From Escherichia coli (GTDB lineage: Bacteria; Pseudomonadota; Gammaproteobacteria; Enterobacterales; Enterobacteriaceae), in NCBI RefSeq assembly GCF_013122565.1, contig NZ_CP053258.1: a stretch of 64,000 nucleotides of DNA; one strand, written 5' to 3'. A program made the position numbers and the translations under genes. Under the pieces are notes generated by a model. The model was not told the origin of the DNA. It ran no database searches and saw only the letters and a program-made list of their open reading frames with translations. Positions 16,038 to 51,984 of this stretch are shown here, in pieces. Each line of letters opens with the position of its first letter. The stretch's first letter is position 1.

Positions 16038-17276
16038 TCATATTGTTCCCCCCGGCATCGCATTCACCAGACCTGAAACTGCCTTCTGCGCTGCCTCTGC
16101 GCTTTGTGCACCGGGTACCAGAATCACCTTACGGCACTCCTCTTCACGTTTTTCGAAAATCTCATATCCCCGGGCGGCCTCTTCAAACGGCATATAGTGG
16201 GTAACAATTTCTTCTGGTTTCAGTAATCCTTTCTCAATTAACGGTAATAATTCTCCCAGCCATGCGTGAACGTGGGTCTGTCCCATTTTAAACGTCAACC
16301 CTTTATCAAAGGCGTCGCCAAACAGGAAACCGTGAATAAATCCAGCGTAGACGCCCGGCACGCTAACAATGCCGCCACGCCTGACCGCCGCAATACACTG
16401 GCGCAACGCTTTACCGCTGCTGCCCTCCAGTTTCAGGTTAGTCAGCACCGTTTCCGTGGTGCTGCCTTTCGCTTCAAAACCGACGGCGTCTATTACTGCA
16501 TCCACGCCCCGGTGACCTGCCGTTTGTTCAATAATTGACTGTGCCGGATCGCTATCTTCATCAAAATTAATCGGGATCGCGCCGTAGCGGTCAGCGGCGA
16601 AACGCAAGCGGTAGGGATGATGATCAACAACAAAAATCTGTTCCGCACCGAGCAACCGTGCACAGGCGATTGTCAACAATCCCACAGGACCGGCACCATA
16701 GACTGCAACGCTTGAACCTTGTTGGATCTGCGCATTTTTTGCTGCCTGCCATGCCGTTGGCAGAATATCAGAAAGGAAAAGGGCTTTATCATCTGAAAGC
16801 AAAGGCGGTACTTTAAACGGCCCCACATTCCCTTTAGGGACGCGGACATATTCCGCCTGCCCGCCAGGAACGCCACCATACAGGTGACTATAACCAAACA
16901 ATGCCGCGGGAGCTGGTATCTGTTTTTTATTGAGCGCAGCGCCTTTACCCGCATTGGTATTTTCGCAGGCGGCATATTGCTGCAATCGACAGAAAAAACA
17001 GTCGCCACAAGCAATGACGAACGGAATTACCACCCGGTCGCCTTTTTGCAAATTTTTTACGTCCTTTCCGGTTTCAACGACTTCCCCCATAAATTCATGA
17101 CCAAAAATATCGCCATGTTTAACCTGGGGTATTTTGCCTCGATAAAGGTGGAGGTCAGAGCCACAGATCGCCGTTGCCGTAATACGCAGAATTATATCAT
17201 CTGCCTGTTCAATGCCCGGATCGGGAACATTTTCTACCTGAACGTGATGTGGGCCGTGATAAGTCAATGCTTTCAT
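16038..17276 (-). CDS. ybdR: zinc-type alcohol dehydrogenase-like oxidoreductase (412 aa)
   Basis: Track ORF 412 aa with MDR zinc-ADH motifs ([21 protein letters not shown]). Confidence 0.9.
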
Positions 17277-46630: not shown

Positions 46631-46787
46631 TAGCGTAATGGCGCGCCGTGGGAAGCGCGGACATTAATTAACCAACTGCACTGCGTGTCTTTCAGGATCA
46701 AAGGCTTTCGCGGTAGCGGGCTGCGTCATGCTGGTGACGCCCCTGCCCGACAGTTGCAATTCGTGGCAAAAATGCAGGAATAAAACA

Positions 46788-49028
46788 ATGAACAAGAAGA
46801 TTCATTCCCTGGCCTTGTTGGTCAATCTGGGGATTTATGGGGTAGCACAGGCACAAGAGCCAACCGATACTCCTGTTTCACATGACGATACCATTGTCGT
46901 TACCGCCGCCGAGCAGAACTTGCAGGCACCTGGCGTTTCGACCATCACCGCAGATGAAATCCGCAAAAACCCGGTTGCCCGCGATGTGTCGGAGATCATC
47001 CGTACCATGCCAGGCGTTAACCTGACCGGTAACTCCACCAGTGGTCAGCGTGGTAATAACCGCCAGATTGATATTCGCGGCATGGGTCCGGAAAACACGC
47101 TGATTTTGATTGACGGCAAGCCAGTAAGCAGCCGTAACTCGGTGCGTCAGGGCTGGCGTGGTGAGCGCGATACCCGTGGTGATACCTCCTGGGTGCCACC
47201 TGAAATGATTGAACGTATTGAAGTTCTGCGTGGTCCGGCAGCTGCGCGTTACGGCAACGGCGCGGCGGGCGGCGTGGTTAACATCATTACCAAAAAAGGC
47301 AGCGGTGAGTGGCACGGCTCCTGGGATGCTTATTTCAATGCGCCAGAACATAAAGAGGAAGGTGCCACCAAACGCACCAACTTCAGCCTGACCGGTCCGC
47401 TGGGCGACGAATTCAGCTTCCGCTTGTATGGCAACCTCGACAAAACCCAGGCTGACGCGTGGGATATCAACCAGGGCCATCAGTCCGCGCGTGCCGGAAC
47501 GTATGCCACGACGTTACCAGCCGGGCGCGAAGGGGTGATCAACAAAGATATTAATGGTGTCGTTCGTTGGGATTTCGCACCTCTGCAGTCACTCGAACTG
47601 GAAGCGGGCTACAGCCGCCAGGGTAACCTGTATGCGGGCGATACCCAGAACACCAACTCTGACGCTTACACTCGCTCGAAATATGGCGATGAAACCAACC
47701 GCCTGTATCGCCAGAACTACTCGCTGACCTGGAACGGTGGCTGGGATAACGGCGTGACCACCAGCAACTGGGTGCAGTACGAACACACCCGTAACTCGCG
47801 CATCCCGGAAGGTCTGGCGGGCGGCACAGAAGGGAAATTTAACGAAAAAGCGACACAGGATTTCGTCGATATCGATCTTGATGACGTGATGCTGCATAGC
47901 GAAGTTAACCTGCCGATTGATTTCCTCGTTAACCAGACGCTGACGCTGGGTACGGAGTGGAATCAGCAACGGATGAAGGACTTAAGTTCCAACACCCAGG
48001 CACTGACCGGAACGAATACCGGCGGCGCTATTGATGGTGTGAGTGCCACCGACCGTAGCCCGTATTCAAAAGCAGAAATTTTCTCGCTGTTTGCCGAAAA
48101 CAACATGGAGCTGACTGACAGCACCATCGTAACGCCGGGGCTGCGTTTCGATCATCACAGTATTGTCGGCAATAACTGGAGCCCGGCGCTGAACATATCG
48201 CAAGGTTTAGGCGATGACTTCACGCTGAAAATGGGCATTGCCCGCGCCTATAAAGCGCCGAGCCTGTACCAGACTAACCCGAACTACATTCTCTACAGTA
48301 AAGGTCAGGGCTGCTATGCCAGCGCGGGCGGCTGCTATCTGCAAGGTAACGATGACCTGAAAGCAGAAACCAGCATCAACAAAGAGATTGGTCTGGAGTT
48401 CAAACGCGACGGCTGGCTGGCGGGCGTCACCTGGTTCCGTAACGATTATCGCAATAAGATTGAAGCGGGCTATGTGGCTGTAGGGCAAAACGCAGTCGGC
48501 ACCGATCTCTATCAGTGGGATAACGTGCCGAAAGCGGTGGTTGAAGGTCTGGAAGGATCTTTAAACGTACCGGTTAGCGAAACGGTGATGTGGACCAATA
48601 ACATCACTTATATGCTGAAGAGTGAAAACAAAACCACGGGCGACCGTTTGTCGATCATCCCGGAGTATACGTTGAACTCAACGCTGAGCTGGCAGGCACG
48701 GGAAGATTTGTCGATGCAAACGACCTTCACCTGGTACGGCAAGCAGCAGCCGAAGAAGTACAACTATAAAGGTCAGCCAGCGGTTGGCCCGGAAACCAAA
48801 GAAATTAGTCCTTACAGCATTGTTGGCCTGAGCGCGACCTGGGATGTGACGAAGAATGTCAGTCTGACCGGCGGCGTGGACAACCTGTTCGACAAACGTT
48901 TGTGGCGTGCGGGTAATGCCCAGACCACGGGCGATCTGGCAGGGGCCAACTATATCGCCGGTGCCGGTGCGTATACCTATAACGAGCCGGGACGTACGTG
49001 GTACATGAGCGTTAATACTCACTTCTGA
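46788..49028 (+). CDS. fepA: TonB-dependent ferric enterobactin outer-membrane receptor (746 aa)
   Basis: Internal Met (MNKKIHSLALLVNLGIYGVAQA signal peptide) of track ORF 46728..49028; TonB box DTIVVTA and C-terminal aromatic residue. Confidence 0.95.
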   Translation: MNKKIHSLALLVNLGIYGVAQAQEPTDTPVSHDDTIVVTAAEQNLQAPGVSTITADEIRKNPVARDVSEIIRTMPGVNLTGNSTSGQRGNNRQIDIRGMGPENTLILIDGKPVSSRNSVRQGWRGERDTRGDTSWVPPEMIERIEVLRGPAAARYGNGAAGGVVNIITKKGSGEWHGSWDAYFNAPEHKEEGATKRTNFSLTGPLGDEFSFRLYGNLDKTQADAWDINQGHQSARAGTYATTLPAGREGVINKDINGVVRWDFAPLQSLELEAGYSRQGNLYAGDTQNTNSDAYTRSKYGDETNRLYRQNYSLTWNGGWDNGVTTSNWVQYEHTRNSRIPEGLAGGTEGKFNEKATQDFVDIDLDDVMLHSEVNLPIDFLVNQTLTLGTEWNQQRMKDLSSNTQALTGTNTGGAIDGVSATDRSPYSKAEIFSLFAENNMELTDSTIVTPGLRFDHHSIVGNNWSPALNISQGLGDDFTLKMGIARAYKAPSLYQTNPNYILYSKGQGCYASAGGCYLQGNDDLKAETSINKEIGLEFKRDGWLAGVTWFRNDYRNKIEAGYVAVGQNAVGTDLYQWDNVPKAVVEGLEGSLNVPVSETVMWTNNITYMLKSENKTTGDRLSIIPEYTLNSTLSWQAREDLSMQTTFTWYGKQQPKKYNYKGQPAVGPETKEISPYSIVGLSATWDVTKNVSLTGGVDNLFDKRLWRAGNAQTTGDLAGANYIAGAGAYTYNEPGRTWYMSVNTHF

Positions 49029-49067
49029 TGCTAACGTCAGATTGTTGACAAAGTGCGCGTCGTTCAT

Positions 49068-49164
49068 GCCGGATGCGGCGTGAACGCCTTATCCGGCCTA
49101 CAAAATCTTGCTAATTCAATATATTGCAGGACTACGTAGGCCTGATAAGCGTAGCGCATCAGGC
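49068..49164. repeat. BIME: two REP units in inverted orientation between fepA and entD
   Basis: gccggatgcggcgtgaacgccttatccggcctaca (49068-49102) and gtaggcctgataagcgtagcgcatcaggc (49136-49164). Confidence 0.6.
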
Positions 49165-49822: not shown

Positions 49823-49843
49823 TTGACAACATCTGGTACGATT

Positions 49844-49871
49844 CGCCCGCAGCCATCACTGACCGCGGGCG
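49844..49871 (-). other. stem-loop in the hokE 3' region (candidate hok mRNA 3'-terminal structure)
   Basis: cgcccgc-agccatcactgac-cgcgggcg inverted repeat between the entD stop and the hokE stop; no adjacent U-tract. Confidence 0.4.
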
Positions 49872-49943
49872 AAAGTGTAAAGCAGGTGCCCTACCATCCT
49901 GACCTGACAACCGGATATGCGGGGATTGCTCCCCGCACAACGG

Positions 49944-50096
49944 CTACTTCTTCGGTTCGTAAGCGAGAACAGCCTTAAACTCAATATTACGTTCCTTCAC
50001 CGTAAACTCACACAGCGAGTCTCCGACCAGAAGCGTAAATCCCAGTACCGTCAAACACAGCACTATGACTGCCACAAGGGCATATTTCGTCAGCAT
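49944..50096 (-). CDS. hokE: Hok-family small membrane toxin HokE (50 aa)
   Basis: Internal Met of track ORF 49944..50180; [50 protein letters not shown] has the Hok single-TM plus conserved Cys/EVAAF-like tail; the track ORF N-terminus runs into IS150 and is an artefact. Confidence 0.8.
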
Positions 50097-50192
50097 GTTT
50101 ATATTGCCTCCATGCGAAGAAGGGACTACCATCCAAATTGCTAGGTTTGGGTAGGTAGCCCCAGGGTGTACTGACCCCAAAAAGTTGGACAG

Positions 50193-51044
50193 TTAAACAC
50201 GAGGCATATAGGTCTGATTCCGATATTCAATTGGAGTCAGACCTTTTAATTTCAGGCTAATTCTTCTGCTGTTGTAGTATTCAATATATTCCGTAACAGC
50301 ATCCTTCAGTTCGCTTATATTACTGAACTCATCAAGATAAAAACACTCCGACTTTAAGGTTCCAAAGAAACACTCCACCACAGCATTATCCAGACAATTG
50401 CCTTTTCTGGACATGCTTTGTTTAATACCATGTTCTTTAAGGATATTTTGATATCTTCTCATACGATACTGCCATCCCTGGTCAGAGTGCAGAACAGGAT
50501 GCTCGTGAGGATTAAGCTTTTTGAATGCCTGATCGAGCATATTCTCAACCATGTTCATCACTGGTCTTTCCGAAAGGCTGTAAGAAATAACTTCATTGTT
50601 GAAGAGATCTATTACTGGAGACAAATACAGCTTGCGCCCATTGACTGCAAATTCAGTAACATCGGTAACCCACTTCTCGTTTGGCCGCGTAGCCTTGAAA
50701 TCTCTTTGGAGAACATTGGGGGCGGTTTGCCCTACCTCTCCTCTGTAAGAGCGGTATCGCTTGACCTTAATCGCTGCCTTAAGTGAGAGGGTTCCCATCA
50801 GGCGCTGAACAGCTTTATGGTTAATCTGTTTCCCTTCTCGATGAAGAGACAGCGTTACCCTACGGTATCCGTATCGGCCTCTATTCTCATGATAAATCTC
50901 ACCAATACGCTTTTTAACGTCCGCATACTTGTCAGGCTTGCTGAGAGCCTTTAGATGGTAATAAAACGTACTGCGCGGTATCTCCGCAGCCCTGAGAAGC
51001 TCATCAAGAGGATAAAACTGCCTTAGCTCGTTGAGTACTTTCAC
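50193..51044 (-). CDS. insK: IS150 OrfB (InsK, DDE catalytic domain, 283 aa; expressed as OrfAB fusion by -1 frameshift)
   Basis: Track ORF 283 aa with integrase-core DDE region; overlaps orfA in the -1 frame. Confidence 0.93.
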
Positions 51045-51562
51045 TTTTTCGTGGGATGAGCTAAGGCTTTCAGCTTTTTTAGATACACAAGCCGCGTTTC
51101 AAGAAATCGAACTTGCCTTTCAAGATCCTCAATGCGTCGGTCTTTTGACAGCTCCAATGCTGATGCCGCTTTTTCTGGATCAACTGATATTGCAATGTTT
51201 CTTTTGGTGCCAATCTTGAGCGCGCGTAAACCAGCTTCTCCGCGCTCTTCATAAACCTTCAGCCACCTGGCTACAGAACCACTACCAGCAAGCATAAAGT
51301 GAGCAGCAGCCTGATTAAGGGACATGTGCTGCTCGATCACAGCTTTCACGACCTTAATACGCAACTCTGGATCAGCACTAACACCTTTAGGTTTGGGAAT
51401 TAAACCTTTTTCTCCATGTTTTTCATAGAGGGCAACCCATGTCCTGACCTGGGTTCGGGGGACACCAAAACGTGCCGAGATGATCCTGTAACCATCATCA
51501 GTAGTGAAGTAGTGATTCACGACTTCAAGGCGCTTTTCAAAAGGGTATTTTGGCTTTGACAT
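51041..51562 (-). CDS. insJ: IS150 OrfA (InsJ, HTH DNA-binding, 173 aa)
   Basis: Track ORF 173 aa (MSKPKYPFEKRLEVVNHYFTTDDGYRIISARFGVPRTQVRTW...), recognised as IS150 OrfA. Confidence 0.93.
   Translation of the reverse strand: MSKPKYPFEKRLEVVNHYFTTDDGYRIISARFGVPRTQVRTWVALYEKHGEKGLIPKPKGVSADPELRIKVVKAVIEQHMSLNQAAAHFMLAGSGSVARWLKVYEERGEAGLRALKIGTKRNIAISVDPEKAASALELSKDRRIEDLERQVRFLETRLVYLKKLKALAHPTKK
51074..51080 (-). other. IS150 programmed -1 ribosomal frameshift slippery heptamer A_AAA_AAG near the end of orfA
   Basis: orfA codons ...CTA AAA AAG CTG... (L-K-K-L) located 11-12 codons before the orfA stop, within the orfA/orfB overlap window. Confidence 0.7.
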
Positions 51563-51984
51563 ATCAGGGGCTATTCCATTTCATCGTCCAACAAAATGGG
51601 TGCAGTACAGGGTTGATAGAAATATCTCCTGGGGCTTCATCTTTCCAGACCTCAGAGTAAACCTGAAACCGGAAAGCTTCAGGCACCCGCCGTTATCTTA
51701 CCCTTCCTCAACAAAATAGCTGTTTATTTATACAGTGAGTCCTGTTTCGGACTTCTCACTCCCCATTTGATCAACTGAAGCTGAACCCGTTTTTTTCTGC
51801 ATGCCGCAATCGTCAAAATTCTTCGCCACCAGCCAGCCGTGCCATAACTTGTCACATTGCAAAAGTAGCCAAATTGCTTCAGGCACCATCAGTTCACCAT
51901 CACCAAAAAAAAGAAACATTCCAGAACTTCCGCATCTCGCCCAGCCGCTCCGACTTCTATACTGAATAGAAAACGCCAACATAA

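Follow-up and report, generated by a model that had tools for sequence, protein, structure and literature searches.

An IS150 insertion splits the leader of an intact hokE toxin gene in Escherichia coli

Introduction

What is left of the control of a type I toxin gene when an insertion sequence parts its open reading frame (ORF) from the upstream half of its leader? This question is raised by hokE in the window analyzed here, i.e., a whole stretch of 64,000 nucleotides of an Escherichia coli genome (contig NZ_CP053258.1). The gene is among the SOS-induced toxins (PMC8406316), and strains carrying either an uninterrupted sokE or sokE disrupted by IS150 (sokE::IS150) differ in the RecA dependence of their viability (PMC11551753). 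The exact anatomy of such a locus matters for following up this RecA-dependent viability, namely the RNA elements that are kept, the chimeric antisense RNA that is likely made, and the LexA-controlled promoter that now runs into transposase genes. The original prediction held that an intact hokE stands downstream of IS150 with part of its control region displaced, the locus being either silent or expressed from the insertion sequence.

Results

The hokE ORF lies on the minus strand at 49944..50096, from its ATG (50096-50094) to its TAG (49946-49944), and consists of 50 uninterrupted codons, codon 46 (TAC, 49961-49959) being kept within its TACG context. Its product matches Pfam PF01848 (HOK_GEF) over the full length of the model (positions 1-42 of 42, E value of 2.5e-8); this match and a re-translation without any disruption bear out the intact Hok-family ORF expected at the outset. 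The NCBIfam HokA (E value of 4e-13) and Hok (E value of 3e-10) models also match HokE, both under their curated cut-offs. The sole difference from K-12 HokE, which has served as a toxic control (10.1101/2025.08.07.668861), is residue 8 (V for A). By profile match, HokE is a Hok/Gef type I toxin, with the toxicity of the V8 variant only predicted.

The 3' region is equally complete. On the minus strand, it keeps the expected GC stem-loop (GCGGGGAGCAATCCCCGC, 49919..49936), the first of the 3' untranslated region (3'-UTR) in our folds and the site of IS186 in K-12 and B strains. Downstream of it come the fold-back inhibitory element fbi (GGGCACCTGCT, 49881..49891), which in the minimum free energy (MFE) fold of the reconstructed mRNA is complementary to a tac element now 1.8 kb off, and the 3' terminator hairpin of the hokE mRNA (TTCGCCCGC...GCGGGCGAA, 49842..49873), a 14-bp helix in the folds. 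The entD gene converges on this terminator hairpin, 20 nt separating the entD stop codon from the hairpin. The synteny of the segment is that of E. coli, with fepA at 46728-49028, entD up to 49822, and ybdK from 51994, all on the plus strand. Compared with complete RefSeq E. coli genomes, the locus has a best identity of 99.4% over 8 kb, and the entD-hokE-IS150 stretch one of 96.4%.

Upstream of the hokE ATG, the element begins after exactly 70 nt (50097-50166), as had been predicted. It occupies 50167..51609 on the minus strand, i.e., 1,443 bp, and is complete, with its right inverted repeat (IRR) facing hokE and its transposase genes co-oriented with hokE. Its termini are imperfect inverted repeats with TGTACTG... 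ends, and it is flanked by a target-site duplication, with one copy at the IRR (50164..50166, GGG on the plus strand and CCC in the hok sense) and the other at the left inverted repeat (IRL; 51610..51612, GGG). On the minus strand, no damage is seen in insJ (51562..51041, 173 amino acids), insK (51044..50193, 283 amino acids), or the A6G frameshift motif (51080..51074), and insK scores 349.8 bits against NF033516 (IS3 family transposase). Altogether, the size, the ends, the duplication, and the two ORFs overlapping at a -1 frameshift identify the element as IS150 of the IS3 family, its activity being a prediction. This copy differs from the K-12 copy by 11 single nucleotide polymorphisms (SNPs; 99.2% identity).

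To place the insertion in the leader, we used the Rfam family RF01794, which is named "sok" yet models the sense leader of hok mRNAs. An uninterrupted hokE allele matches this model in a single piece at 85 bits. The window holds no contiguous RF01794 leader, the model being split by IS150 into a 5' part (model positions 1 to ~85 at 51688..51610) and a 3' part (positions ~86-157 at 50166..50088, 26 bits). Since the model is split exactly by the insertion sequence and reaches 85 bits when intact, the likeness to a hok leader is not due to chance. A first RF01794 hit of 61.6 bits extended 156 nt into IS150, and its IS-internal part was rejected as an aligner artefact. The displacement of part of the control region by about 1.4 kb, as claimed in the original prediction, is thus found as a hok leader model split by 1,443 bp.

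We then reconstructed the hokE mRNA (408 nt) by deleting IS150 and one of the two duplication copies. Its MFE fold (z = -6.5) is the classical closed hok structure, in which nt 1-11 (GGCGGGUGCCU, tac) pair with fbi (GGGCACCUGCU) over 11 pairs and nt 56-64 (AGCCCCAGG, ucb) pair with nt 81-89 (CCUGGGGCU, a Shine-Dalgarno [SD]-like motif) in a 9-bp helix. IS150 sits after nt 82 of this mRNA, inside the ucb/SD helix, between the second and third pair of its 3' arm. The same assignment of elements was obtained from an alignment to R1 hok, hokB, and hokC together with the R1 coordinates of PMC9841398; this alignment, proposed with the original prediction, placed tac, ucb, and the sok promoter relative to the IS junction. 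On the other strand, the ucb/SD helix of the hok leader is the terminator hairpin of SokE, and IS150 is inserted there. SokE is annotated in MG1655 as a 60-nt antisense RNA with its 5' end 44 nt upstream of the hokE ATG. Transfer of this position sets the SokE start of the window at 50140; hence, IS150 cuts SokE after nt 27 of ~60.

Several elements remain beside hokE. On the minus strand, Rfam alignment, folds, and frame analysis place leader hairpin 3 (GGGGC...GUCCC, the equivalent of mok-SD/dcb) at 50122..50162, and the hokE SD sequence GGAGG is read directly at 50107..50111, where the opposite strand carries the overlapping sokE -35 box. The sokE promoter (50104..50132, plus strand) consists of TTGCCT, a 17-nt spacer, and TACCAT; it was found by a consensus scan with 8 of 12 matches, and its position agrees with MG1655 sokE. 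This promoter is still attached to the first 27 nt of sokE (50140..50166, plus strand, by homology to the MG1655 annotation), which now read into IS150. In the direction of sokE, the right end of IS150 carries a terminator-like 15-bp hairpin followed by TTTTAATTT (50210..50254, plus strand), which would end a chimeric RNA of ~110 nt.

The other elements now lie on the far side of the 1,443 bp. Homology to MG1655 sokE assigns 51613..51644 (plus strand) to the 32-nt 3' part of sokE, including most of the terminator hairpin and the T-tract. On the minus strand, the ucb or anti-SD element (AGCCCCAGG), which pairs with CCUGGGGCU in the uninterrupted mRNA fold, is found at 51628..51636, and the 5' end of the hokE mRNA, with a putative +1 at 51691, spans 51641..51691 according to the Rfam model (positions 1-59), the fold, and the homology to R1. 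This 5' end comprises tac (GGCGGGTGCCT, 51691-51681, from the fold and the homology to R1) and the tac-stem hairpin (51676-51641, from the Rfam model and the fold). Farther upstream, the predicted hokE promoter (51695..51735, minus strand) includes a -10 box TAAGAT (51700-51695) and a LexA box CTGTATAAATAAACAG (51735-51720), a perfect one and the only CTGT-N8-ACAG of the window. It now points into the IRL and insJ, from which only 81 nt of leader separate it. Homology and consensus alone place the hokE promoter, the +1 of its mRNA, and the chimeric Sok RNA, and neither promoter (hokE or sokE) was returned by a stricter scan.

The original prediction had placed the sok gene just upstream of hokE within a disrupted control region. 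The disruption stands, but sokE lies across the leader in antisense orientation; its promoter is retained beside hokE, and the insertion interrupts the RNA itself. A complete Sok gene of ~60 nt with promoter and terminator is absent from the window, where sokE is found in two pieces (50104-50166 and 51613-51644). Likewise, the 70 bp between hokE and IS150 hold an incomplete control region, made up of the SD-like hairpin, the hok SD, and the sokE promoter with its 27 nt.

The assumption that Hok translation depends on an overlapping mok frame cannot simply be carried over to this gene. The mok ATG is found at -58 in R1 hok and hokB and, in frame, at -57 in hokC. At this position, all four hokE alleles examined read CCA, and MG1655 has no mokE annotation. 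Upstream of hokE, only two candidate starts exist, both within the retained 70 nt: an ATG that shares the hok frame at -36 and a TTG at -40. Since no canonical mok start is present in the hokE alleles examined, a dependence on a canonical mok frame is not to be assumed for hokE.

The IS150/hokE arrangement is a known, published, and widespread allele. For >400 natural isolates of E. coli and for some Shigella flexneri, sokE was reported to be disrupted by IS150 "exactly as" it is in XL1-Blue (PMC11551753, NAR 2024), and the window shares with these the IS150 copy in sokE upstream of an intact hokE. Among 5,426 complete E. coli genomes, we found the identical hokE-IS150 junction in 445, a count that partly reflects common descent, and an uninterrupted hokE leader in 3,379. 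The sampled natural hokE alleles all carry IS150 at one nucleotide and in one orientation, on two haplotypes of hairpin 3; their IS150 copies differ from the K-12 copy by 0 or 1 SNP, against the 11 SNPs of the window copy. With two leader haplotypes, two IS150 variants, and the gain of the insertion by XL1-Blue, a K-12 derivative, several independent events are likely.

Comparison with other hok loci shows different ways of losing the same control. In K-12, hokE carries no IS150 at this site but an IS186 in the first 3' stem-loop, the alignment breaking inside the hairpin. K-12 hokE and hokC thereby resemble the window in having lost long-range RNA control with an intact ORF, IS186 being inserted after the stop codon. 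The severed side is reversed, however, since IS186 cuts the 3'-UTR stem-loop and removes fbi, whereas the window keeps its 3' region and has lost its 5' connection. Compared with the K-12 derivatives that carry sokE::IS150, the window has no IS186 downstream, and fbi and terminator are intact. The E. coli B strain REL606 shows at hokE the same junction between the IRR and CCCTGGGG and the same orientation, but it has lost ~160 bp on the IRL side, and with them promoter, LexA box, tac, and ucb. In addition, its IS150 is split by IS1, an IS186 follows the hokE stop codon, and its leader haplotype is K-12-like. K-12 hokA/mokA/sokA (Pedersen and Gerdes 1999, as cited in PMC11551753) is again a hok locus with IS150 in the leader and an intact hok ORF, the 5' part of the leader ending at the homologous position (...AATCAAAGTT); mokA and sokA are annotated as pseudogenes in MG1655, and the disruption of MG1655 sokA by IS150 has been reported (PMC11551753). 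There, the IS150 is inverted and lacks a target duplication, and only 32 nt precede the hokA ATG, implying the loss of ~38 bp (hairpin 3) beside IS150. Finally, the hok/sok module of plasmid R1 shares with hokE the tac, ucb, SD hairpin, sok promoter over the hok SD, fbi, and terminator, but hokE has a LexA box and lacks a mok ATG at the homologous position, and the module of the window is split by the insertion.

The same leader position is used by IS150 in other hok loci. In experimental evolution, mokB/trg and hokC/nhaA are IS150 hot spots (PMC5289635, PMC5419217, PMC4301190, and PMC3576414), trg/mokB being one in mutation-accumulation lines (PMC5289635). Three REL606-derived lines gained IS150 de novo at hokC position 16,972 (PMC5419217), a position that differs from the hokE site by one nucleotide at most. 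These hot spots represent de novo events in hokB and hokC, whereas the window holds a natural hokE allele. The mokB/trg and ldr coordinates of PMC5419217 found no correspondence on REL606, probably owing to a rearranged reference, and only the hokC coordinates were used; the hokB site was established from natural genomes. In complete genomes, the homologous site is occupied by IS150 in the same orientation 572 times in hokB (junction ...ATC[AAC]CGAGGCC) and 272 times in hokC. At least 550 PLSDB plasmids (IncF) carry a co-oriented IS150 in the tac element of R1-type hok (...CGG[CGCT]TGAGGCT), a second TGAGGC site. Among species-representative genomes, the IS150 right end was matched exactly six times, a number insufficient for a target logo. 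Three of the six abut TGAGGC 73 to 75 nt upstream of a 50-amino-acid Hok ORF, two in [Erwinia] mediterraneensis and one in Superficieibacter electus. Two others lie outside hok loci, and the last, on a 454-bp contig of Methylobacillus that may be contamination, resembles the K-12 hokA junction. Setting aside the inverted and rearranged hokA, all these co-oriented sites have, at the IRR, YGRGGC directly after the duplication. By a rough estimate that includes common descent, ~1,290 of ~5,900 IS150 right ends in the 5,426 genomes, i.e., roughly a fifth, lie in the leaders of hokB, hokC, and hokE. A resemblance of the target to the ends of IS150 (CAAC...TGGGG) was also considered and rejected, being weak and absent in hokB and hokC.

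Discussion

Our analysis makes it very likely that we are dealing with the known sokE::IS150 allele of hokE/sokE, a type I toxin-antitoxin module of the chromosome, with a toxin gene that is largely silenced and an insertion site that is not accidental. We propose that a simple transposition of IS150, with a 3-bp duplication, took place into the ucb/SD helix of the hok leader. As the sequence shows, tac, ucb, and the predicted LexA-controlled promoter are now parted from the hokE ORF and from what has remained beside it (hok SD, SD-like hairpin, fbi, and terminator). Neither the native hokE mRNA of ~400 nt nor the native 60-nt SokE should then be producible any longer. Any hokE transcript would have to be the 3' end of an RNA that crosses or leaves the co-oriented IS150, and its level would probably be low. 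The sokE promoter beside hokE would probably yield the ~110-nt chimeric RNA ending at the IS-internal hairpin, and this RNA would be perfectly complementary to any read-through hokE transcript. The net effect we infer from this arrangement is a toxin gene that would be largely silenced, although not necessarily neutral. Indeed, given its published RecA dependence, the sokE::IS150 allele is not neutral, and production of HokE could be what this phenotype means.

An active expression of hokE from IS150, by insJ-insK read-through or from an outward promoter, appears possible but rather doubtful to us. According to this explanation, native SokE is lost, and HokE made at a low but physiologically relevant level sensitizes the cells under some stresses. 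The geometry is suitable, IS150 and hokE being co-oriented with the IRR toward hokE, with no terminator-like site found by our scan on the minus strand between insK and hokE. Moreover, a read-through RNA would be devoid of ucb, which normally sequesters the leader SD, and sokE::IS150 strains, not sokE+ strains, require RecA for viability in certain backgrounds (PMC11551753). The reports on IS150 itself diverge. An outward promoter was ascribed to its 3' end, the end that faces hokE here, and increased transcription was seen for 12 of 55 regions downstream, with modest effects (PMC11101190), but a reporter study detected no promoter activity in the terminal 150 bp (PMC12095673). Our scans of the IS150 right end for a consensus outward promoter, and of the junction for a hybrid one, gave nothing convincing, the best consensus candidate (8 of 12 matches) lying >200 bp inside IS150. 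In addition, the hok SD is predicted to pair with the IS150 sequence GCCUCG in the MFE fold of the read-through RNA, the chimeric antisense RNA made from the intact sokE promoter would still cover that RNA, and hundreds of healthy lineages carry the allele.

A neutral relic seems improbable, i.e., an insertion that came to lie near hokE by chance or through a single inheritance, without target preference or consequence, the 153-nt ORF having had no time to decay. Such a reading could call upon the description of chromosomal hok loci as putatively inactivated in different ways (PMC11551753) and upon an earlier study that, as cited, found chromosomal loci to mediate no postsegregational killing. 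The module may already be degenerate, in view of the missing canonical mok start in the hokE alleles examined, and the count of 445 genomes may be largely clonal, e.g., ST131. Its chance-placement part, however, is already contradicted. The insertion nucleotide and the orientation of IS150 agree between two leader haplotypes and between two IS150 variants, and the same insertion was gained by a laboratory K-12 derivative (PMC11551753). The homologous hokC position was hit de novo in three laboratory lines, and the homologous site is occupied in hokB, in hokC, and in Hok loci of other genera. A phenotype is moreover linked to the sokE::IS150 allele. We also regard as unlikely, though less so than the relic, that the insertion mainly serves the insertion sequence, with the hok leader as a docking site where the toxin is neutralized and insJ-insK come under a host promoter (SOS-inducible in hokE), which would make the transposase damage-inducible. 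The hokE LexA box and -10 box (51735-51695) do face the IRL and insJ, and every natural insertion examined, be it in hokB, hokC, hokE, plasmid hok, or the Hok loci of other genera, has one and the same orientation. Nevertheless, the benefit to IS150 is deduced wholly from such arrangements, the K-12 hokA copy has the opposite orientation, hokE is the only one of these loci with a known LexA box, and the orientation bias could equally be explained by target recognition by the transposase or by lethality of the other orientation.

Beyond the silencing of hokE that we favor, we lean toward the view that IS150 may seek hok leaders, at one position immediately 5' of the leader SD motif marked by the duplication and YGRGGC, and co-oriented with hok in the natural insertions examined except in K-12 hokA. 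The hot spots at mokB/trg and hokC as well as the disruptions of sokA and sokE have been published; a limited literature search found no statement of the shared position, orientation, and motif. If the pattern is due to target recognition and not to descent and selection, leaders of type I toxins would be natural docking sites for insertion sequences. Each insertion would then disarm a toxin and put the transposase behind the toxin promoter, an SOS-controlled one in the case of hokE. With hok leaders as a preferred and orientation-specific target of IS150, the parallel "mutations" of evolution experiments would be a matter of mutational bias and not of adaptation. For annotation, sokE of the window should be marked as disrupted, with the predicted hokE promoter and LexA box now facing IS150. 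The disruption can be undone, as precise reversion of sokE::IS150 has been seen (PMC11551753).

An SOS-controlled promoter facing IS150 in the split hokE allele

The hokE promoter, with its LexA box and -10 element, lies at 51695-51735 on the minus strand of the window and reads towards position 51609, so that the IRL and insJ of IS150 stand 81 nt downstream of it and directly in line. In the IS150-split hokE allele of the window, a host promoter under SOS control could drive the transposase genes of the element. This IS150 (50167-51609) carries 11 SNPs relative to the K-12 copy, and every ORF in it is intact; the hokE IS150 copies of ST131, O39:H21, and Combat13F7 show 0 to 1 differences each from the same K-12 copy.

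In some genomes, hokE loci occur as a tandem pair with a spacing of ~500 bp, as observed in ST131 MNCRE44 (positions 2093-2747 of locus L001) and in O39:H21 (3043-3698 of L015). The entD-side copy of the pair has an intact leader, and the leader of the ybdK-side copy is interrupted by IS150. Beside hokE, ST131 carries a gene island encoding an SDR oxidoreductase and an ABC transporter, whereas the window has entD in that place.

Recurrent insertion sites in hok loci

In the R1-type hok of an IncF plasmid (NZ_CP015086.1; L019, 874-2316), IS150 is co-oriented with hok and inserted at mRNA positions +3 to +6, in tac, with a 4-bp duplication (CGCT). The same tac-inserted arrangement of plasmid hok was found in at least 550 PLSDB plasmids. 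Since substitution of tac positions G4-T6 has been shown to abolish toxicity (PMC9841398), these IS150-carrying plasmid loci are probably disarmed.

The hokE locus of E. coli B (REL606; L006, 4043-7385) contains three insertion sequences, namely, the leader IS150, an IS1 nested within that IS150, and an IS186 located 3' of the stop codon, and has lost ~160 bp comprising the promoter, LexA box, tac, and ucb. The IS186 site falls inside the first 3'-UTR hairpin, CGGGG-N6-CCCCG (window, 49919-49936; MG1655 locus L008, 2508; REL606 hokC locus L007, about 1225), a homologous place shared by the hokE and hokC genes in both K-12 and B. IS186 at this homologous place in both genes defines a second recurrent insertion site of hok loci, besides that of IS150.

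Outside E. coli, exact 28-nt matches to the IS150 right end were found in [Erwinia] mediterraneensis (two copies; L023, 142-169, and L024, 141-168) and Superficieibacter electus (L025, 50-77), where the element is known from its right end alone, the sequence starting about 50 to 140 nt before the matched end. TGAGGC adjoins each of them, 73 to 75 nt 5' of a 50-aa Hok-family ORF. In the Methylobacillus sp. MM3 assembly, a 454-bp contig (L020) joins an IS150 right end to a leader of the hokA type, the same arrangement that E. coli K-12 has; this contig appears to be contaminating E. coli DNA.

Annotation of the hokE neighborhood

Many genomes carry, antisense to the hokE leader, a frameshifted RefSeq "hypothetical protein" pseudogene (L002, 1365-1633; L013, 4661-4878; L003, 2644-2912). 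It extends over the start of hokE and over the sokE region and is probably an annotation artifact covering the RNA elements. In the fepA-entD intergenic region (window, 49038-49143), Rfam returned ES036 above its threshold (47 bits) and naRNA4 and Ysr224 below threshold; the matched stretch (GCCGGATAAGGCGTT...) may represent REP elements.
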